The notes under the pieces are model-generated. The model searched no databases. It was not told where the DNA came from and worked only from the letters and a program-made list of their open reading frames with translations. Positions 3,214-30,374 of a stretch of DNA of 64,000 bases are shown here, piece by piece. The position numbers and the translations under genes were made by a program. This stretch comes from Escherichia coli (GTDB lineage Bacteria; Pseudomonadota; Gammaproteobacteria; Enterobacterales; Enterobacteriaceae): the NCBI RefSeq assembly GCF_017348835.2, contig NZ_CP071375.1; one strand, given 5' to 3'. Position 1 is the stretch's first letter; each line of letters starts with the position of its first letter.

Positions 3214-4815
3214 ATGACTGAACAGGCAACAACAACCGATGAACTGGCTTTCACAAGGCCTTATGGCGAGCAGGAGAAGCAAATTCTTACTGCCGAAGCG
3301 GTAGAATTTCTGACTGAGCTGGTGACGCATTTTACGCCACAACGCAATAAACTTCTGGCGGCGCGTATTCAGCAGCAGCAAGATATTGATAACGGAACGT
3401 TGCCTGATTTTATTTCGGAAACAGCTTCCATTCGTGATACAGACTGGAAAATTCGTGGTATTCCCGCGGACTTACAAGATCGTCGAGTCGAGATAACTGG
3501 CCCGGTTGAGCGCAAGATGGTGATCAACGCACTCAACGCCAATGTGAAAGTCTTTATGGCCGATTTCGAAGATTCACTGGCACCAGACTGGAACAAAGTG
3601 ATCGACGGGCAAATAAACCTGCGTGATGCAGTTAACGGCACCATCAGCTATACCAATGAAGCAGGCAAAATTTATCAGCTCAAGCCCAATCCAGCGGTTT
3701 TGATTTGTCGGGTACGCGGTCTGCACTTGCCGGAAAAACATGTCACCTGGCGTGGTGAGGCAATCCCCGGTAGCCTGTTTGATTTTGTGCTCTATTTCTT
3801 CCACAACTATCAGGCACTGTTGGCAAAGGGCAGCGGTCCCTATTTCTATCTGCCGAAAACCCAGTCCTGGCAGGAAGCGGCCTGGTGGAGCGAAGTCTTC
3901 AGCTATGCAGAAGATCGCTTTAATCTGCCGCGCGGCACCATCAAGGCGACGTTGCTGATTGAAACGCTGCCCGCCGTGTTCCAGATGGACGAAATCCTTC
4001 ACGCACTGCGTGACCATATTGTTGGTCTGAACTGCGGTCGTTGGGATTACATCTTCAGTTATATCAAAACGTTGAAAAACTATCCCGATCGCGTCCTGCC
4101 AGACAGACAGGCAGTGACGATGGATAAACCATTCCTGAATGCTTACTCACGCCTGTTAATCAAAACCTGCCATAAACGCGGTGCTTTTGCGATGGGCGGC
4201 ATGGCGGCGTTTATTCCGAGCAAAGATGAAGAGCGCAATAACCAGGTGCTCAACAAAGTAAAAGCGGATAAATCGCTGGAAGCCAACAACGGTCACGATG
4301 GCACATGGATCGCTCACCCAGGCCTTGCGGATACGGCAATGGCGGTATTCAACGACATTCTCGGCTCCCGTAAAAATCAGCTTGAAGTGATGCGCGAACA
4401 AGACGCGCCGATTACTGCCAATCAGCTACTGGCACCTTGTGATGGTGAACGCACCGAAGAAGGTATGCGCGCCAACATTCGCGTGGCTGTGCAGTACATC
4501 GAAGCGTGGATCTCCGGCAACGGCTGCGTGCCGATTTATGGCCTGATGGAAGATGCGGCGACGGCTGAAATTTCCCGTACCTCGATCTGGCAGTGGATCC
4601 ATCATCAAAAAACGTTGAGCAATGGCAAACCGGTGACCAAAGCCTTGTTCCGCCAGATGCTGGGCGAAGAGATGAAAGTCATTGCCAGCGAACTGGGCGA
4701 AGAACGTTTCTCCCAGGGGCGTTTTGACGATGCCGCACGCTTGATGGAACAGATCACCACTTCCGATGAGTTAATTGATTTCCTGACCCTGCCAGGCTAC
4801 CGCCTGTTAGCGTAA
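3214..4815 (+). CDS. aceB: Malate synthase A
   Basis: ORF 3196..4815; protein [20 protein letters not shown]... recognised as AceB; start trimmed to the ATG giving 533 aa. Confidence 0.95.
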
Positions 4816-21237: not shown

Positions 21238-21732
21238 TTAATTTGCGATTAACTGTTCGTTTATTTTGTCGATAATATTGATTGAGGGATCTGACGCTAC
21301 GACGCGTAAATCCAGTATGACGCCAAGATTATTTAACTCATGAAATGCGTTAATATCATCATCATCTAATGAAACCGCTTTGGTTAACTGTTTTTTACCG
21401 GGCCGCCAGGCCATGCCGCCAATATTCAGGGTGCCTATTTTTACCCCCTGGCGAACCATCGCTAAGGCATCCTGTGGGCGAGTGAAAAGATAAAAAACGG
21501 TTTCGTCCTGATATTGCGGGTTGTGATAAACCGCGACGGCTTTTTCAATATTGACCACGTTAACCTTCATTCCCGGTGGCGCAGCCTGACGCAATAATGT
21601 CCGGCGAACTTCATCGTTATAAACTTCGTCATTGCAGATAATAATGCGCTGGGCGTTAGCCACTTTCGACCAGACGGTAGTGACCTGACCGTGGATCAGG
21701 CGGTCATCAATGCGGGCGAGCGTAATGTTCAT
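21238..21732 (-). CDS. sorB: PTS sorbose/mannose-family EIIB component
   Basis: 164-aa ORF MNITLARIDDRLIHGQVTTVW... (conserved IIB His motif). Confidence 0.85.
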   Translation of the reverse strand: MNITLARIDDRLIHGQVTTVWSKVANAQRIIICNDEVYNDEVRRTLLRQAAPPGMKVNVVNIEKAVAVYHNPQYQDETVFYLFTRPQDALAMVRQGVKIGTLNIGGMAWRPGKKQLTKAVSLDDDDINAFHELNNLGVILDLRVVASDPSINIIDKINEQLIAN

Positions 21733-22139
21733 CAGAAATCCTCCTCTGCCGTTGCCACCTGTCTCCAGACGACGCAGGATTGCTTTGCGATTTGCGTCAG
21801 GTGTTCACACAGTTCATCAACATTCATGCTGTCCTGGTTATCAACCAGTTCGAGCGCCAGCGGCAGAGAAAGGCCGCTGATTACCCGCAAACGAGGATTG
21901 CGCATCGCAAGCATCGCTGCCGCATTCCACGGGCTGCCGCACTGTAAATCCACGGCAATCAGCCACTCATCTTGATTGTGAATGCTTACTAACTTTTCCA
22001 GCTTTACCACAATGTCTCCGGCGTTTTCACCGGGCACAAATTCAACGGCTTCAACATTGGCGTTGCCGTAAACCATCTGAACCGATTCCAGCATGGCGCA
22101 AGCTAATTTGCCGTGGGCACAAAAAATGGCGTTGACCAT
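21732..22139 (-). CDS. sorF: PTS sorbose/mannose-family EIIA component
   Basis: 135-aa ORF MVNAIFCAHGKLA...; start of sorB overlaps its stop (ATGA), indicating translational coupling. Confidence 0.85.
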   Translation of the reverse strand: MVNAIFCAHGKLACAMLESVQMVYGNANVEAVEFVPGENAGDIVVKLEKLVSIHNQDEWLIAVDLQCGSPWNAAAMLAMRNPRLRVISGLSLPLALELVDNQDSMNVDELCEHLTQIAKQSCVVWRQVATAEEDF

Positions 22140-22148
22140 AAAGCCTCC

Positions 22149-22955
22149 TTATCCGCGCGTTTTGCCGCCCGCAATGTTAGTGGTTACTCCGGTGATGTAG
22201 CTGGCGCGTTCAGACAACAGATAACAAACAAAATCAGCGACTTCTGCTAATCTACCGGCGCGCCCAATAGGAATGGCGTTTTTGGTATAGCCTTCACGCA
22301 GCTGCTCGACGGTGATATTGCGCGTCCACGCCAGCGCTTCTTCATATTCCGGCGTGCGCAGTCCTGTTTTTTCCAGAATCCCCGGCGCGATACCGACCAC
22401 ACGGATACCGTGTTTACCCAATTCTTTCGACCAGGAGCGCGTGAAGCTATTGAGCGCGGCTTTGGTAGCGGCGTAACAGCTTTGTCCTTCTGAGCCTTCC
22501 AGCCCACTTTCTGAGGAAACATTCACAATCACGCCATCATGTTGTTTGACCATCTGTCGCGCCACCGCCTGCGACATCAGAAAAACACCTTTCTGGTTGA
22601 TATTGACCATTTTTTCGAATGCAGCTTCGTTGAGTTCATACTGCCCGGCAGGCGCTTTCTCATCGACCAGCAGACGCGGGAAATTGACCCCGGCGTTATT
22701 GACCAGACCGTCGATGCGACCAAAACGCTGGATAATTTCCGCTACCGTATGATTTACCTCTTTGGCGCTGGAAATATCGGTCGGCCAAAACTGATAGCCT
22801 TTATGACCTTCATATTGTCCATCGCCACCGTGAATATCGACCATCTGTACATTCGCGCCTTGTGCTAATAATTCCTCTACAATCGCCAGACCAATACCGG
22901 ATGCGCCGCCGGTGACGATAATGATTTTATCCTGCAAATTTAACCACGTTTGCAT
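22149..22955 (-). CDS. sorD: Sorbitol-6-phosphate 2-dehydrogenase (short-chain dehydrogenase/reductase)
   Basis: 268-aa ORF with TGGASGIG Rossmann motif and SDR catalytic YxxxK (YAATKAAL). Confidence 0.8.
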   Translation of the reverse strand: MQTWLNLQDKIIIVTGGASGIGLAIVEELLAQGANVQMVDIHGGDGQYEGHKGYQFWPTDISSAKEVNHTVAEIIQRFGRIDGLVNNAGVNFPRLLVDEKAPAGQYELNEAAFEKMVNINQKGVFLMSQAVARQMVKQHDGVIVNVSSESGLEGSEGQSCYAATKAALNSFTRSWSKELGKHGIRVVGIAPGILEKTGLRTPEYEEALAWTRNITVEQLREGYTKNAIPIGRAGRLAEVADFVCYLLSERASYITGVTTNIAGGKTRG

Positions 22956-23024
22956 AACAGACTCCTGATTTTAGATAATAGGGACCCGCCGTAATTTTTA
23001 TTACGATAAACATCGGGAAGATTT

Positions 23025-23972
23025 TTATTTCAGTAATAGTTCAGCTGTGCTGCTATTCGTTACCAGACAATTAATATATTTTCCACGCAGTGCACCAATA
23101 ATTCCGCTGTATTTTTCTTCACTCATGGCAATGCCAATGGAATATCGTGCCTGCTTTAATTTATTCATTTCGATAGAGAGTGTTTTTTCGCTCATATTCG
23201 TTTCAACCATTGCGCCGTGAATATCAAAAAAGCGCGAGCAAATATCGCCAGCAACCTGGCGGGCATTCAGGTCGTCACTCTCTTCACCACCATAAAACGC
23301 ATGCCAGTTAGCGCCGTCGCGAATGGCCGGTGAGCCAATTCCCACCAGGGCGACATCCAGATTATCCCAGTAGGCAGAGATGGTTTTAAAGTGCTGAGAC
23401 TGCATGATCCCATTACGAATTAAGGGGTTATCCAGCAGAGCCGGAAAATCCGCGAGATGCGATTCCCCTTTCAGCTTCGCTGCCGCGCTGTAGGTTAATG
23501 TGTTTACGTGATAGCGGCTTTCGAGTTTACCGGACGGTCCGCCAATAATTGGCACGCAGATTAACTGCCGCGATTGCCCCGCTTGCGGCAAGTTTTCAAC
23601 CAGTGCGCTCACCGCGCGACCCCAGGAAAAACCGACAATATCGCCAGGCTCCAGCAAGCGATCCAGCAGTTGCGCGCCGTGTAACCCCATCATCGCCAGT
23701 TGAGTCTCTTCATCCTCATCATTTCCCGACACCACCACAACGTCTTTCAGGCCAAACTTTTGCTTCAGTTGCTGCTCGAGCCAGAGATTTTCGTTGTAGT
23801 CATAGTTGATGGCGATGGTGACAATTCCCTGATCGCGGCCTCGTTTAAGCAAGCGGCTGATGGTGGTGCGGTAAATACCCAGTTCGCGCGCGATTTGCGC
23901 CTGCGTCATATCCTGTTCGTAATAGAGTTGGGCAATCTTCACAATCAAACGGATATCGTCACTGTTTTCCAT
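23025..23972 (-). CDS. sorC: SorC-family transcriptional regulator of the sorbose operon
   Basis: ORF 23025..24056 trimmed to MENSDDIRLIVKIAQLYYEQDMTQAQIARELG... (HTH plus sugar-binding domain, about 315 aa). Confidence 0.8.
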   Translation of the reverse strand: MENSDDIRLIVKIAQLYYEQDMTQAQIARELGIYRTTISRLLKRGRDQGIVTIAINYDYNENLWLEQQLKQKFGLKDVVVVSGNDEDEETQLAMMGLHGAQLLDRLLEPGDIVGFSWGRAVSALVENLPQAGQSRQLICVPIIGGPSGKLESRYHVNTLTYSAAAKLKGESHLADFPALLDNPLIRNGIMQSQHFKTISAYWDNLDVALVGIGSPAIRDGANWHAFYGGEESDDLNARQVAGDICSRFFDIHGAMVETNMSEKTLSIEMNKLKQARYSIGIAMSEEKYSGIIGALRGKYINCLVTNSSTAELLLK

Positions 23973-23988
23973 TGCCGCCTCCTGGTTC

Positions 23989-24111
23989 TGCACATTTGTG
24001 CAAATACGCTTTCTCACCGCTTGATCTGATATAACCCCATCATGATGGCCTTTCAAAGCGATTTTTCACTCTTTGCATGGGGAGAAATAGCGCTTTCTCT
24101 TGCACATTTGT
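23989..24111. promoter_or_regulatory. sor promoter region with repeated TGCACATTTGT motif (one copy forms palindrome TGCACATTTGTGCA)
   Basis: Motif occurs at 23989-24002 and 24101-24111, just upstream of the sorC start; candidate SorC operator sites. Confidence 0.35.
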
Positions 24112-25192: not shown

Positions 25193-25465
25193 TCAGCGCC
25201 TGCCGCGCGTCGACGTATTTGCTGACCAGCTAAATGACGCTTCAGGATCCGGTTTATAAGCCTGCTTTTTCTTTAACTGGCGGGCTTTTTTCGCTTCAGC
25301 CTCACGCTCGACCATTAATTTATCGATGTACTCTTTCTTAATGCTGTTGGTTTCGGAGTTGGTCAGTACGCGACCATGCGCAATCCGCGCCCGATCCAGC
25401 AGTGTTTTAAGTTCACGTTGCTCGCGTTCAGTCATCTCTTTTTGAGTAATACGGGGGAGTGCCAT
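25193..25465 (-). CDS. yjbD: Small conserved protein YjbD (DUF3811-like)
   Basis: 90-aa ORF MALPRITQKEMTEREQRELKTLLDRARIAHGRVL... at the expected position. Confidence 0.8.
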   Translation of the reverse strand: MALPRITQKEMTEREQRELKTLLDRARIAHGRVLTNSETNSIKKEYIDKLMVEREAEAKKARQLKKKQAYKPDPEASFSWSANTSTRGRR

Positions 25466-25993
25466 GATGGTGCCCTCAGTGAGCCAGAGAGTTCAGTGTA
25501 CGGGAATTCGTTTGCGAGCAGAACTGATAATATTCCTTTGTTCTCTTCTTAAATATTTATCTTTCTTGATAATTGACGATAAATACAGATACAAATTTAG
25601 CGAAAAAATCTCCCCCTACAAACAACAATGATTTATTAAATCTTTATTTTTCATGTAATTAAAATTTTTTATCACTTCTGGCACGCTTCTCGCAATAACA
25701 CTTTTGCGTTGATACTGAATTACAAAGGGGGTTAAACCCCGTCGGCACACCAGGAACGGCCAGGCTGTTTTCCGGGCGTGTTCCGTCAGCCTTTGACGCC
25801 AATTACGGGTTCGATTCCCACATTCATTCCTGAAATGAATACTGGTTGTAACTTATTAAATAAAAAATGAGGGATTGCGCAGTCTGCGGTCCCCGATAAC
25901 GTCACCGATAAAGATGCCGGGTAACAGGCAAAAGGGAATTCCCCTGTCGCTTCGTGTCTGCTTCCGCGACGGCTATTAAGCAAGGAATAGATA

Positions 25994-27121
25994 ATGATTA
26001 AAAAAATAAGCGTAAGAAAAGATCAGCTGGCATTACTCTCCAGAAACGGCGATTACTACAAAGTGCTGCATGCAGGCGAGCATATTTTACCCTGGTTAAA
26101 TACCCCGGAAGTGTTGCTGATTACGCTGGATGGTAGCGAAGTTCCCGACGTGCTTGCGGATTATTTGCGCCGCTTTCAGCCTGATTGGGTGGAGAAATAT
26201 TGCCTGGTGGCAGACTTGTCGGAGACTGAAGCCGGGGTGTTGTATATGGACGGTATTTTGTTGGAGATCCTGCCGCCATCAACGCGTCGTTTGTACTGGC
26301 GTGTAGAGGATGATTTGACGCTGGTGCGGATGAATACGCAGCAAGTCCCGGTACAAACGGAGGTGATGAATGCGGTATTACAGCCACGGCGCAAAGGAGT
26401 TGTTAAAGGCCGCGATGCGATACTGACGGTGCAGGTTCCGGCCTGGCATGTAGGCGTGCTGAAAATCGATGGTGAAACGCAGGCGCTGTTACCGCCGGGG
26501 CTGACTGCGTACTGGAAAATAAATCATCTGGTTGAAGCTGAAGTTGTCGACACCCGCTTGCAGGTACTGGAAGTCAGCGGGCAAGAAATCTTAACGAAAG
26601 ATAAGGTCAATCTGCGGATTAATCTCGCCGCTAACTGGCGCTATAGCGATGTGTTGCTGGCATTTAGTCAGCTAACGAAGCCGATTGATCATTTGTATCG
26701 GGAATTACAATTTGCCCTGCGTGAAGCGGTAGGTACGCGCACACTGGATGAACTGCTGGAAGATAAACAGGTCATTGATGACGTTGTTAGCGAGCAGGTG
26801 AAACTACGCATGAAGCCGTTCGGTATGGAGATCGCTTCGTTAGGAGTAAAAGATATCGTCCTGCCTGGCGATATGAAAAATATTCTTGCGCAACTGGTAG
26901 AGGCGGAGAAATCCGCGCAGGCCAATGTGATTCGCCGACGTGAAGAAACGGCAGCGACGCGCTCGTTACTGAACACCGCCAAAGTCATGGAGAACAATCC
27001 GGTAGCGTTGCGTTTAAAAGAGCTGGAAACGCTGGAGAGAGTGGCTGAGCGGATTGATAACATCTCTGTATTTGGCGGTCTGGATCAGGTTCTGCATGGG
27101 TTGGTTAATATCAAAGGGTGA
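25994..27121 (+). CDS. Soluble SPFH/band-7 (stomatin/prohibitin-like) domain protein with a novel ~170-aa N-terminal domain
   Basis: 375-aa ORF; C-terminal half has SPFH-like features (VSGQEILTKDKVNLRINLAANWRY...AEKSAQANVIRRREETAATRSL); no evident N-terminal transmembrane segment; AAGGA Shine-Dalgarno before the ATG. Confidence 0.7.
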   Translation: MIKKISVRKDQLALLSRNGDYYKVLHAGEHILPWLNTPEVLLITLDGSEVPDVLADYLRRFQPDWVEKYCLVADLSETEAGVLYMDGILLEILPPSTRRLYWRVEDDLTLVRMNTQQVPVQTEVMNAVLQPRRKGVVKGRDAILTVQVPAWHVGVLKIDGETQALLPPGLTAYWKINHLVEAEVVDTRLQVLEVSGQEILTKDKVNLRINLAANWRYSDVLLAFSQLTKPIDHLYRELQFALREAVGTRTLDELLEDKQVIDDVVSEQVKLRMKPFGMEIASLGVKDIVLPGDMKNILAQLVEAEKSAQANVIRRREETAATRSLLNTAKVMENNPVALRLKELETLERVAERIDNISVFGGLDQVLHGLVNIKG

Positions 27122-27918
27122 GTAACATGCCATTAAATGGAGTCAGTGCTGCGATGCGCGAAAGGGTATCGCAGCAGTTAAAAGAAATTGAACGTCGCTA
27201 TGGCGTGAAAGTGCTGTACGCCTGCGAATCGGGGAGTCGCGGCTGGGGATTTGCTTCGCCCGACAGCGATTACGATGTGCGGTTTTTGTATGTCCATCCG
27301 CTGGAATGGTATCTGCGGGTAGAGGCACCACGCGATGTTATCGAACTGCCCATCGACGACGAGTTAGATGTTTCCGGTTGGGAATGGCGCAAAGCGCTGG
27401 GATTGCTGAAAGGTGCGAATCCCACGCTAATTGAATGGCTGGATTCACCGGTGGTCTATCAGCAAGATGAAGAGACGATAACGGCGCTTAAGGCAATGGT
27501 CCCAACGTGGTTTTCTCCGTTGCGTGCGCGCTGGCATTACTATTCGATGGCGCAGAAAAACTTCCGCGGATATTTGCAGGGCGATGAAGTTCGACTGAAA
27601 AAATACTTTTACGTGCTGCGTCCGTTGCTGGCCGTGCGTTGGGTTGAAGCGGGAAAAGGCGTACCGCCAATGCGTTTTTCCGAATTGCTGGCGGGAAGTG
27701 AGTTGGATGCGGCCTTACGCGCAGAAATAGATGAATTACTGGAACGTAAACAGCGTGCGGGTGAAGCGGAATATGGCCCACGCCGTCCATTGCTACATGC
27801 GTTTATCCATGCGGAACTGGCGCGTGGGGAAATTCCGCCTGTGTTACCGGATAGTAGAGAAGGGGACGTTAAGAAACTGGATAGCTTACTGTACCAGACG
27901 GTAATGCGCCGGGCGTGA
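27118..27918 (+). CDS. Pol-beta-superfamily nucleotidyltransferase
   Basis: 266-aa ORF; ESGSRGWGFASPDSDYDVRF fits the hG[GS]x9-13DxD nucleotidyltransferase signature; GTG start at 27118 overlaps the upstream stop (GTGA), alternative ATG at 27127 with AGGGTG Shine-Dalgarno. Confidence 0.7.
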   Translation: MSNMPLNGVSAAMRERVSQQLKEIERRYGVKVLYACESGSRGWGFASPDSDYDVRFLYVHPLEWYLRVEAPRDVIELPIDDELDVSGWEWRKALGLLKGANPTLIEWLDSPVVYQQDEETITALKAMVPTWFSPLRARWHYYSMAQKNFRGYLQGDEVRLKKYFYVLRPLLAVRWVEAGKGVPPMRFSELLAGSELDAALRAEIDELLERKQRAGEAEYGPRRPLLHAFIHAELARGEIPPVLPDSREGDVKKLDSLLYQTVMRRA

Positions 27919-27933
27919 TGCCCGGCGTTATTT
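27906..27933 (+). terminator. Intrinsic terminator after the nucleotidyltransferase gene
   Basis: Hairpin CGCCGGGC-gtgat-GCCCGGCG overlapping the stop codon, followed by TTATTT. Confidence 0.5.
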
Positions 27934-27950
27934 CAGGTCATCAGCTTTTA

Positions 27951-28880
27951 TTATTCTTGTGCACTTCCGCTGATTTCATTTTGTATATGCGTTGCAATAT
28001 CGCAATTGGTTGCCGCTTGTGAACTAAATATCATCTTCTCACGCGAATACACCGCAAACTTATCTGCCAGGTTTGAAGCAAACACCTTGCTGGCATTTTC
28101 TGCTAGCAAATCGGTAACGATATCATGGTGATTTTTATCCACTTTGCGGGCGATATTTCCCGCCTCTTTGTCCTTATTATACCCTTCGTTGGTGCTTTCC
28201 CAGCTTAATGCCGCTGAGGTGGTTTTTATCATGACTTCTGTTCGGTAGCCTGCATCTTTGAGTTTTTTTAATGTTTGTAGCGGCGTAGCGGCATTACGAA
28301 ATGTTCCTTCGACAACAATATTGAGTTTATTGGCTATGGCCCTCTCTATTGCACGTTCGACCGTTTCGCCGGAAAATTTTGCCGTATGGGTAACAAAATC
28401 GTCGCCATAAGTTTGATATATATAATTAAAATCAGGGTGTAGAAATCTGAAATCATCACCATTAATAATCATTATATTATTCTTTGTTTCCCTTTTTGCT
28501 AATTCGATTAGGGCGGATTTTCCGGCTCCTGGTTGTCCACCTAAAACAAAACCAATGGGACTCTGCTGGGATGTGACGTCATGGTTTGTCAGACGCTGCC
28601 AAATAGAATCAAAAGACGCTTTATTTTCTGAATGCGCAGTATTATTAAATTCACGCTGATACTTTTTTCTGACCTGCTGGAGGCGTAACTTTCCCTGTGT
28701 AAAATCAACAAGTTCTGCTGGAGTGGAATAAAGATTGTCGCGATAGCTGACTAATTGTGATAGCTCATCGTCTGAGTCCTGAACTTGTGAGGAAAAACAA
28801 CTGTCGACGATATTTGATAAAAACGCGATGCACTGACTGGTGCCGTTTAAAAGTGCATCTTTTTCCATTAAAGTAGCCAT
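27951..28880 (-). CDS. ezeT: Single-chain zeta-toxin family protein (EzeT-like UDP-GlcNAc kinase toxin with N-terminal cis-antitoxin domain)
   Basis: ORF 27951..28886; Walker A GGQPGAGKS placed ~110 residues from the N-terminus (long N-terminal extension); zeta-toxin-like C-terminal region; likely ATG at 28880 preceded by AGGAG; AT-rich. Confidence 0.7.
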   Translation of the reverse strand: MATLMEKDALLNGTSQCIAFLSNIVDSCFSSQVQDSDDELSQLVSYRDNLYSTPAELVDFTQGKLRLQQVRKKYQREFNNTAHSENKASFDSIWQRLTNHDVTSQQSPIGFVLGGQPGAGKSALIELAKRETKNNIMIINGDDFRFLHPDFNYIYQTYGDDFVTHTAKFSGETVERAIERAIANKLNIVVEGTFRNAATPLQTLKKLKDAGYRTEVMIKTTSAALSWESTNEGYNKDKEAGNIARKVDKNHHDIVTDLLAENASKVFASNLADKFAVYSREKMIFSSQAATNCDIATHIQNEISGSAQE

Positions 28881-29024
28881 TAACACTCCTGTTAAATAAT
28901 ATTTTTCGGTGATTATAATACTGTTCTACAGGAGTGATTTTGCATTTCAGATATTATTTAATCTATGTTTGCAGTGAGGATGGCGTATAACAATTGGTGA
29001 GCGTTATACGCCAGTAGGAAAATA

Positions 29025-30374
29025 TTACTCAAACAAATTACTATGCAGTTTTTGCACCACCTGCTCGGCATCTTCGCCGGGCACCAGGAAGCACAGGTTA
29101 TGGCTGGATGCGCCGTAACAAATCATGCGAATGTTGAACGGTTCCAGTACGCCGAATACCTCTTTGCCAACGCCGCAGGCTTTTGACAGGTCATTGCCAA
29201 TCAACGCGACCAGCGCCAGACCTTCTTCTACTTCCACCCGGCACAGTGCGGAAAGCTCCATCAGCAGAGATTGCGTCAGCAACGTATCGCCAGTGGAGGT
29301 TGAACCGGTGGTATCAAGGGTTAATGCCACGCTCACTTCTGACGTGGTGATTAAGTCTACCGAAATATTATGCCGCGCGAGGATGCCGAAAACTTCCGCG
29401 AGGAAGCCGCGAGAATGCAGCATATTCAGGCTGTGCAAAGTGAGCAGAGTCTGATTGCGACGAAGCGCCAGCGCGCGGAACAGCGGCGGATTTTCAGTTT
29501 TATTGCATACCAGCGTACCACCTGCGCGTGGGTCTTTGCTGGAGCCGACAAAGACCGGGATATCGCTGCGTACTGCGGGTAGCAATGTTGCCGGATGCAG
29601 TACTTTTGCACCAAAAGTTGCCATCTCTGCTGCTTCGGCAAACGCGATTTCATCAATGCGTTTTGCTGCGGAAACCACGCGTGGATCGGTGGTGTAGATG
29701 CCCGGGACGTCGGTCCAGATATCAACACGAGATGCGTGTAAAGCCTCCGCCAGCAAGGCTGCCGTATAATCGCTGCCTCCACGGCCAAGCGTCGTTGTAC
29801 GACCTTTATTTTCGCTACCGATAAATCCCTGGGTGATCACTAAACCTTCATTGAGACGTGGGAGCAGCTGCAGCGCGGCCAGTTCCGCCAGCGCGGCTAT
29901 ATCTGGCTCTGCACGACCAAATCGGTCGTTGGTACGCATCACTTTACGTACATCAAACCACTGTGCCTGAACATCGCGTTCGCGCAGGATCTCAACAAAC
30001 AGCAGGGTCGACATCAGCTCGCCGTGGCTGACCAGCTCATCTGTCAGCGCCGGAGACGTTGCCAGCGCCGCCGCTTCTGCCAGAACAGTAATGTTCTCCA
30101 GCAGACGTTCAATCTCTTCACGGATAACGTTCGGGTAACGCAGACGTTCCAGAATGGCAAACTGGATGTTGCGAATAGCGTCGAGTTTTTCGAATCGCTC
30201 GCCAGGTTCCAGCCCTTCCGCTAAAGCGACCAGCAGATTAGTGATACCAGCAGAAGCCGAGAGGACAACTAAACGCACGTTGGCATCAGAAAGCACAATA
30301 TCAGCGCTGCGGTTCATGGCGTCAAAATCAGCTACGCTGGTACCGCCAAATTTGGAGACAACAATTTCAGACAT
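29025..30374 (-). CDS. lysC: Lysine-sensitive aspartokinase III
   Basis: 449-aa ORF MSEIVVSKFGGTSVADFDAMNRSADIVLSDANVRLVVLSASAGITN... recognised as LysC. Confidence 0.95.
   Translation of the reverse strand: MSEIVVSKFGGTSVADFDAMNRSADIVLSDANVRLVVLSASAGITNLLVALAEGLEPGERFEKLDAIRNIQFAILERLRYPNVIREEIERLLENITVLAEAAALATSPALTDELVSHGELMSTLLFVEILRERDVQAQWFDVRKVMRTNDRFGRAEPDIAALAELAALQLLPRLNEGLVITQGFIGSENKGRTTTLGRGGSDYTAALLAEALHASRVDIWTDVPGIYTTDPRVVSAAKRIDEIAFAEAAEMATFGAKVLHPATLLPAVRSDIPVFVGSSKDPRAGGTLVCNKTENPPLFRALALRRNQTLLTLHSLNMLHSRGFLAEVFGILARHNISVDLITTSEVSVALTLDTTGSTSTGDTLLTQSLLMELSALCRVEVEEGLALVALIGNDLSKACGVGKEVFGVLEPFNIRMICYGASSHNLCFLVPGEDAEQVVQKLHSNLFE

Follow-up and report, generated by a model that had tools for sequence, protein, structure and literature searches.

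The stretch analysed here, termed the window, comprises 64 kb of Escherichia coli DNA and carries at 25994-27918 a pair of genes encoding a soluble Band-7/SPFH protein (gene 1) and a nucleotidyltransferase of the RlaP family (gene 2). The pair lies between yjbD (25193-25465) and lysC (29025-30374) and is preceded by an upstream activator motif, a sigma-54 promoter and a structured leader RNA, the coordinates of which are collected in Table 1. An initial annotation, made from the sequence alone, had described two co-directional, tightly coupled genes in a strain-variable slot. Both open reading frames (ORFs) were present, the second read from a GTG start at 27118-27918 (266 residues). RefSeq and orthologue alignments placed the start of gene 2 at ATG 27127, 5 nt past the TGA of gene 1; either start implies close coupling with gene 1. 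The region 25400-29100 was 100% identical to strain PE164, and K-12-like genomes aligned to the yjbD and lysC flanks only (7% of the query), so both parts of the description held.

Table 1. Features of the yjbD-lysC locus, given as positions in the 64-kb window
Feature	Position	Strand	Basis and remarks
RtcR-type upstream activator motif, TTATC-N6-GATAA-N4-CGATA-N5-AGATA	25557-25591	+	No adjoining rtcR gene
Sigma-54 (-24/-12) promoter, TGGCACGCTTCTCGCA	25679-25694	+	Pattern match and conservation of position
Leader RNA 5' domain, a probable derivative of a tRNA-like unit	25707-25826	+	Five helices; RNAalifold on 11 Enterobacterales sequences
Small leader hairpin, AUUCAUU-CCUGA-AAUGAAU (weak candidate)	25822-25840	+	Minimum free energy fold
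Leader RNA 3' domain	25871-25971	+	Hairpin 25871-25893 and long irregular hairpin 25900-25971; RNAalifold, 11 sequences
Gene 1, Band-7/SPFH ('slipin')	25994-27121	+	Soluble, 375 residues
Gene 2, RlaP nucleotidyltransferase	27127-27918	+	263 residues from ATG; alternative GTG 27118 overlaps gene-1 stop
Terminator hairpin, G+C-rich, 12 bp	27903-27932		Between the convergent rlaP and zeta-like genes; overlaps rlaP stop codon

Profile searches of both proteins, which the initial annotation had proposed, gave clear matches. Gene 2 was matched over its full length by Pfam RlaP (PF10127; 1.3e-96, profile positions 1-248 of 249), a family described as 'RNA repair pathway DNA polymerase beta family'. 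The polymerase beta-type (Pol-beta) nucleotidyltransferase signature GS...DSDYD read from the sequence was present, residues G36, S37, D46, S47, D48, Y49 and D50 being at least 95% conserved in 27 orthologues, and with the full-length profile match and the Pol-beta catalytic motifs (hG[GS], DxD) the protein was assigned to RlaP. RlaP enzymes of Pseudomonas fluorescens and P. aeruginosa were reported to add 1-2 nucleoside monophosphates to RNA 3'-OH ends; both favour damaged RNA and restore aminoacylation of over-trimmed, repaired transfer RNA (tRNA) (PMC12776372, December 2025 preprint). By analogy, the E. coli RlaP at this locus would be active on RNA 3' ends. Jumbo phages of Pseudomonas (records H55-H66, 280-306 kb) also encode RlaP homologues of 43-45% identity, many of them under the annotation 'putative protein YcgL'; these lack a Band-7 partner and are consistent with phage-borne RNA repair. 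Families of the PHROG database matching RlaP and the neighbouring zeta-like protein over their full length were set aside, no close phage genomes standing behind them; these matches are suspected to come from prophage predictions.

Gene 1 was matched by Pfam Band_7 over residues 147-318 (7.6e-24). No transmembrane segment or hairpin anchor was found in the protein, the maximum Kyte-Doolittle value over 19 residues being 1.0, which bears out the earlier description of a soluble SPFH/Band-7 protein. An AlphaFold model built from an alignment had a predicted local distance difference test score (pLDDT) of 91; a single-sequence model (pLDDT 40) was discarded. The architecture consists of three beta-meander repeats (about 5-47, 73-117 and 147-188), the SPFH core and long helices at 292-353. 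The repeat unit, of ~45 residues, is the beta-meander that opens every SPFH domain, and in profile-profile comparison the three repeats were mutually alike at 98.8-99.1% probability. The N-terminal ~170 residues, earlier regarded as unassignable, are thus two extra copies of this opening unit. Six Band-7 orthologues from Gilliamella and Snodgrassella are ~520 residues long with the N-terminal repeat region duplicated further, and many relatives of 500-660 residues appeared in the representative search; repeat number therefore varies, as in vault proteins.

The SPFH fold with its long helical region, as in stomatin and HflK/C, and the RefSeq product name 'slipin family protein' would fit a conventional membrane SPFH microdomain or protease regulator (HflK/C-, QmcA- or flotillin-like) that merely neighbours an unrelated nucleotidyltransferase. 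This reading is scarcely credible. Besides the missing anchor, no NfeD partner gene was present near gene 1 in the window gene list, and the NCBIfam HflK/HflC models scored about 30 bits, far under their cut-offs of 134-660, so that the protein does not belong with the stomatin/HflKC-type membrane scaffolds. Its orthologues are linked instead to rtc genes and tRNA-like RNAs.

Eighty genomic loci with Band-7 orthologues of 42-81% identity were fetched from a representative search and a genome scan (a word-indexed protein search gave only near-identical E. coli sequences), and RtcR, RtcB, RtcA and RlaP were placed in them by tblastn. Gene 1 is orthologous over its full length to the Band-7 proteins encoded beside rtcB and rtcR. 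Neighbours were counted in the 59 loci with enough flank, 45 of which carry rtc genes: rtcR lies divergently upstream in 39, rtcB downstream in 42, and rlaP downstream, after rtcB or Band-7, in 23. Among the 43 orthologues of at least 50% identity, rtcR was found with 38 and rtcB with 38. The typical layout is divergent rtcR, then Band-7 - rtcB - rlaP - (rtcA); a homologue of 68% identity has rtcR on the minus strand followed by Band_7 and RlaP. The conserved context is therefore an RtcR/sigma-54 RNA-repair operon and not a toxin-antitoxin or defence island.

The same slot is occupied in related genera. In Pseudocitrobacter the order is yjbD, two unrelated genes, divergent rtcR, leader, Band-7, rlaP and lysC, and Enterobacter sp., Pluralibacter and Siccibacter have this layout with rtcB between Band-7 and rlaP. 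DNA homology between these relatives and E. coli stops just past yjbD (25523) and resumes at 25676, 3 nt before the TGGCAC of the promoter. The fuller slots of the relatives and this break in homology indicate that rtcR and rtcB disappeared from the slot in E. coli, which acquired the zeta-like gene. The K-12-like spacer (L092:1560-1825) aligned with the window from 25459 to about 25640, including a degenerate activator motif (TTATCTCTTTCGATAATTAATTAGAGATGCAGATAA); the empty slot is thus what a deletion left behind, and the module did not arrive by insertion. The identity of RlaP, the linkage to rtcR and rtcB and the synteny, together with the activator motif, the RtcR C-terminus, leader covariation and dN/dS values described below, make it probable that the locus is a reduced Band-7-type Rtc RNA-repair operon in its ancestral place between yjbD and lysC.

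The module was surveyed in 5426 complete E. coli genomes and found in 1631 (~30%), always on the chromosome; the whole block is deleted in the other 70%. Apparent plasmid copies of the Band-7 gene proved to be chromids or mislabelled chromosomes, none being genuine, and a search of phages returned no copies. The window allele was compared with the common allele, represented by strain SE11. For the Band-7 gene the ratio of nonsynonymous to synonymous divergence (dN/dS) was 0.057 at a synonymous divergence (dS) of 0.217, and for rlaP 0.043 at a dS of 0.431; dS in the flanking yjbD and lysC was about 0.04-0.05. Strong purifying selection thus acts on both (dN/dS about 0.05), and since they also have hundreds of homologue clusters they are real genes and not chance ORFs. 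When 25400-29100 was searched against the 5426 genomes, the window allele was found to be rare, with 4 genomes at 99% identity or more and 1584 at 90-95%. Synonymous divergence of the module between window and common alleles is 5-10 times as high as in the flanking core genes, which points to long-standing allelic lineages or to introduction from a different Escherichia lineage.

With two core components gone, the block missing from most E. coli genomes and the T-arm of the leader eroded, the remaining genes could be a decaying relic, unexpressed or useless after the loss of rtcR and rtcB and heading for deletion as in K-12. This is very unlikely given the dN/dS values over a dS of 0.22-0.43. 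Genomes with at least 80% of the module number 1624; in a sample of nine of them, all with full coverage, both coding sequences are annotated without a pseudogene flag, and the layout without rtcB is stable in four other genera. The leader of ~290 nt differs by only 5.0% between E. coli alleles, 4-8 times slower than synonymous sites in the adjacent genes, and the activator motif and promoter are invariant. Low dN/dS and the small divergence of the leader favour genes that are expressed and selected, and an RNA under constraint.

The promoter, the activator motif and the leader had all been overlooked in the first reading. A sigma-54 pattern scan of the window gave 2 matches against 0.35 expected; the other match to this loose pattern (TGGCACATGGATCGCT) lies at 4299-4314 (+). 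Of 76 orthologous loci, 32 have an equivalent of the promoter TGGCACGCTTCTCGCA at the corresponding position, every enterobacterial locus among them, and the K-12 rtcBA operon has the sigma-54 promoter TGGCACGACGGTTGCA. A promoter scan of 25466-25994 on the plus strand revealed no strong sigma-70 promoter. The activator motif is the sole match to its pattern in the window (0 expected). The pattern was also found in the rtcR-Band-7 intergenic regions of six relatives, and is otherwise confined to such regions and to the E. coli alleles. Its internal spacing is the same as beside rtcR in the relatives, and motif and promoter are unchanged in three E. coli alleles, which differ in the spacer that separates the two.

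K-12 RtcR is 62% identical overall to a Band-7-linked RtcR and nearly identical across the C-terminal region that holds the DNA-binding helix. At this locus a sigma-54 promoter and an enhancer-like motif are present, with rtcR elsewhere in the genome. In SE11, rtcR, rtcB and rtcA are intact at malT-glpR, rtcB lying 0.7 Mb from the module; in PE164, rtcR and rtcA are intact. In a tally separate from that of the module, 4838 of the 5426 genomes held at least 80% of rtcR-rtcB, and the activator is therefore available in trans. Judged from the motif, RtcR would bind upstream at 25557-25591.

The leader RNA was folded by RNAalifold on the 11 Enterobacterales sequences. In the 5' domain, helices 1 and 2 pair 25714-18 with 25786-90 and 25724-30 with 25737-42, and helices 3 and 4 pair 25744-48 with 25778-82 and 25753-60 with 25764-73. 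The T-arm (25805-09/25817-21) carries the tRNA T-loop motif GGTTCGATTCC (25808-25818). Of the 29 proposed pairs, with 94.6% of alignment cells paired, 14 showed compensatory changes against 1-3 in slid controls. A covariance model of this domain (R1) matched the window once and gave full-length matches, on the same strand and in the same position, in 16 beta- and gammaproteobacterial loci. In the consensus 3' domain, 21 of 32 pairs had compensatory changes. The stem of the small hairpin was kept with base changes in Pseudocitrobacter and Phytobacter (alignment A3). A single-sequence minimum free energy fold of the leader was no better than that of shuffles (z = -0.18), and support for the structure comes from comparative data only. 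A hand-drawn arm with a 7-nt loop (CUGUUUU, conserved GUU) had been considered as an anticodon mimic and was dropped; a GGAAC:GUUCC helix is compatible with the alignment, but the RNAalifold helices covary more.

Between promoter and Band-7 gene, ARAGORN and Rfam detected one or two tRNA-like genes with odd anticodons in other Proteobacteria and none in Enterobacterales. With the R1 homology, this makes the E. coli leader a probable degenerate derivative of the band 7-associated (b7a) tRNA-like RNA: it has the T-loop, and its several covarying helices form an element homologous to unit 1 in other leaders. Arrays of 4-18 ordinary-looking tRNA genes were also seen no more than a few kb away from the Band-7 gene in six beta- and gammaproteobacterial loci, some without rtc genes nearby.

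Several observations weigh against reading the locus as a reduced Rtc operon wired to the resident RtcR. No RtcB is encoded in the window, so that the ligase is missing from the operon, and no rtcR lies in cis. The canonical rtcB of PE164 (L091:6755-7982, at malT-glpR) has a +1 nt insertion near nt 614 that leads to an early stop; RefSeq annotates the gene as frameshifted and the insertion was confirmed in the assembly, where it could be an assembly error. The distance from CGATA to TGGCAC is -102 at this locus, compared with -113 to -115 beside rtcR genes and -113 in K-12 rtcBA, placing the motif 11 bp, one helical turn, nearer the promoter than in rtcR-linked loci. The region upstream of K-12 rtcBA resembles the motif only in part, with a half-site spacing different by 4 nt, which leaves recognition by the resident RtcR unproven. 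As to the RNA, ARAGORN and Rfam called no tRNA in the window leader, whose T-stem has only 3 G-C pairs, the E. coli T-arm being reduced to 3-4 pairs. The GGAAC:GUUCC helix accounts for the alignment almost as well as do helices 3 and 4, with less covariation, and the fold is therefore not settled. Deletion of paFlo8, the Band-7 gene of P. aeruginosa, gave no phenotype in standard assays (PMC13086221), and no experiment tying any Band-7 orthologue to RNA was found in the literature.

The lack of rtcR in cis, the shifted motif, its partial likeness to the K-12 rtcBA upstream region and the retention of the module in PE164 would each suit a functional but RtcR-independent module, driven by another enhancer-binding protein or a sigma-70 promoter and maintaining RNA 3' ends by itself, independently of a ligase. 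Such an arrangement is unlikely: the motif has exactly the spacing found beside the rtcR genes of relatives and does not vary among the E. coli alleles, the recognition region of RtcR is conserved, and the sigma-70 scan was negative. A reduced Rtc operon, activated from a distance, is accordingly preferred.

In such an operon, RNA damage would activate RtcR, encoded 0.7 Mb away beside rtcBA, and RtcR would bind the retained upstream motif and fire the sigma-54 promoter. The transcript would supply the structured leader RNA with its tRNA T-loop. The soluble SPFH protein may oligomerise as a ring or cage and, with the leader RNA, act as a scaffold or cofactor analogous to Salmonella Ro60/Y RNA. 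RlaP would then add 1-2 nucleotides to the 3'-OH of trimmed RNAs, for example cleaved tRNAs, and the rebuilt RNAs could be religated, by RtcB in trans where intact, or reused. We infer the action of RtcR in trans, the Band-7/RNA complex and the in vivo substrates from the comparisons above. Rather doubtful is a stronger form in which the ligase-less operon makes a self-sufficient ribonucleoprotein (RNP): a vault-like SPFH cage with the leader RNA would capture damaged tRNA or ribosomal RNA ends for RlaP, wired to RtcR in trans and selected even where rtcB is inactive. If true, bacteria would have an equivalent of the eukaryotic vault, a bacterial SPFH protein would for the first time be given a role away from membranes, and the Enterobacterales leader (about 290 nt, no Rfam family) would be a new structured RNA class.

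The neighbouring gene at 27951-28886 (-), for a zeta-toxin-like P-loop kinase, is convergent with rlaP. Its product was matched by Pfam Zeta_toxin at residues 104-284 (8.9e-39), with ~100 N-terminal residues lacking assignment. The gene is 138 nt from lysC, which leaves no room for an epsilon/PezA antitoxin gene, and no antitoxin ORF lies beside it; it is thus not part of a type II toxin-antitoxin pair. At this locus it was found only with the module (1424 of the 1631 module-bearing genomes), and it was absent from every other genus examined. A weak PHROG match to polynucleotide kinase (9e-5) leaves open that the protein may be a nucleic-acid kinase. The initial annotation had used this gene as functional context for a toxin-antitoxin-like or phage-defence-like module with the nucleotidyltransferase as effector or modifier. 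In such a module the enzyme might block tRNA 3' ends, for instance, like the MenT/AbiEii nucleotidyltransferases, with the SPFH protein as its partner or sensor. Variability of the locus among E. coli strains, the adjoining zeta-like gene, RlaP homologues in jumbo phages and nucleotide addition to RNA 3' ends, a chemistry that some toxins use, are compatible with that proposal. It is nevertheless highly improbable. Neither protein had a match in PADLOC-DB 2.0 at E<=0.01, and profiles of toxin-antitoxin or defence families matched neither Band-7 nor RlaP. The partner genes that are conserved are rtcR, rtcB and rtcA, and the promoter is of the sigma-54/RtcR type. The locus is syntenic across Enterobacteriaceae, its variability stems from deletion, and it is always chromosomal with no Band-7 copy in phages. 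Being convergent and absent elsewhere, the zeta-like gene gives no functional context for the pair. A stress role in the broad sense remains reasonable; its toxin-antitoxin or defence form is unsupported.

The shared terminator proposed downstream of the pair corresponds to the hairpin at 27903-27932. The 50 nt at 27896-27945 that hold it folded at -23.3 kcal/mol (ViennaRNA); the T-run is weak (TTATTT), and the hairpin was not listed by a consensus terminator scan. The only Rfam matches were a terminator-like SorX fragment, a partial match that aligned at its terminator stem only, and a chance snoRNA match. Elsewhere in the window, 21732-24056 (-), upstream of rluF, holds genes for a phosphotransferase system-like subunit, a short-chain dehydrogenase and a SorC-type sugar-binding regulator (RefSeq 'sugar-binding transcriptional regulator'); in K-12-like and SE11 genomes it is pepE that lies directly upstream of rluF.

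The literature yielded no experimental test of the Band-7/tRNA-like arm of RNA repair, predicted since 2016, and the minimal version, present in ~30% of complete E. coli genomes, would make it accessible to genetics. Questions that become approachable include the dealings of a soluble SPFH protein with RNA, the action of RlaP without a dedicated ligase, and a possible second RtcR promoter in natural E. coli, work on K-12 having called the rtcBA promoter the 'sole native chromosomal' one (PMC9650030). A link between the Rtc system and tolerance of ribosome-targeting antibiotics has been reported (PMC12606134), and the presence or absence of the module from strain to strain could therefore matter for that phenotype.

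Among known systems, one for comparison is the eukaryotic vault (major vault protein and vault RNA). The Band-7 protein has only three short repeats, a closed cage or RNA packaging would be hypothetical for it, and the likeness is partly that of the common SPFH fold. The Salmonella rsr-yrlBA-rtcBA operon (PMC7790460, PMC9879122) likewise combines RtcR/sigma-54 control with a protein scaffold, tRNA-mimicking RNAs and repair enzymes, and is likely a functional analogy; the E. coli locus differs in having no TROVE/Ro60 protein, no Rfam Y-RNA match in the leader, and an RNA that precedes the scaffold gene as its leader. Salmonella tRNA fragments ending in cyclic phosphate were reported to regulate RtcR and expression of the operon (PMC7790460, PMC10159003). 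K-12 rtcR-rtcBA (Genschik 1998; PMC9650030) shares the sigma-54 promoter with CGATA about 110 nt upstream, and presumably the activator, but encodes a ligase and a cyclase and lacks Band-7, RlaP and a structured leader. A further comparison is the P. aeruginosa locus rtcR - PaFlo8 (PA14_60630) - rtcB - rlaP - rtcA, with PaFlo8 inside the rtc locus (PMC13086221) and rlaP between rtcB and rtcA (PMC12776372). The Band-7 and RlaP families are the same, the Band-7 proteins of two Pseudomonas loci being 57-59% identical to gene 1. That locus has all five genes and two tRNA-like genes upstream, whereas E. coli keeps two of the genes. The PaFlo8 SPFH clade was stated to be absent from Enterobacterales (PMC13086221), a statement that the E. 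coli Band-7 locus corrects.

The initial annotation knew no established function for the domain pairing; a Band-7 protein with a tRNA-like RNA beside RtcB had in fact been described. RNA-repair systems that unite SPFH/Band-7, b7a-tRNA, RtcB and RlaP are reportedly the subject of a 2016 article by Burroughs and Aravind in Nucleic Acids Research (NAR). As quoted in a passage of bioRxiv 10.1101/312249, Burroughs and Aravind 2016 noted RtcB encoded beside a Band-7 protein and a predicted 'band 7-associated tRNA'. The E. coli locus agrees with these systems in its orthologous Band-7 (N-terminal repeats included) and RlaP, its sigma-54/RtcR-type promoter, and a T-loop leader homologous to the first tRNA-like unit of other Proteobacteria. 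It differs in lacking RtcB and RtcR in cis and any tRNA-like gene detectable by ARAGORN or Rfam; the Enterobacterales leader combines a single degenerate unit with a long hairpin where the second, authentic-looking tRNA-like unit would stand. Systems of this kind are thus already known, having been predicted in 2016, with RlaP biochemistry reported in 2025. Particular to this locus is that ligase and regulator are gone from it and that promoter, enhancer-like motif and a derived leader RNA remain.

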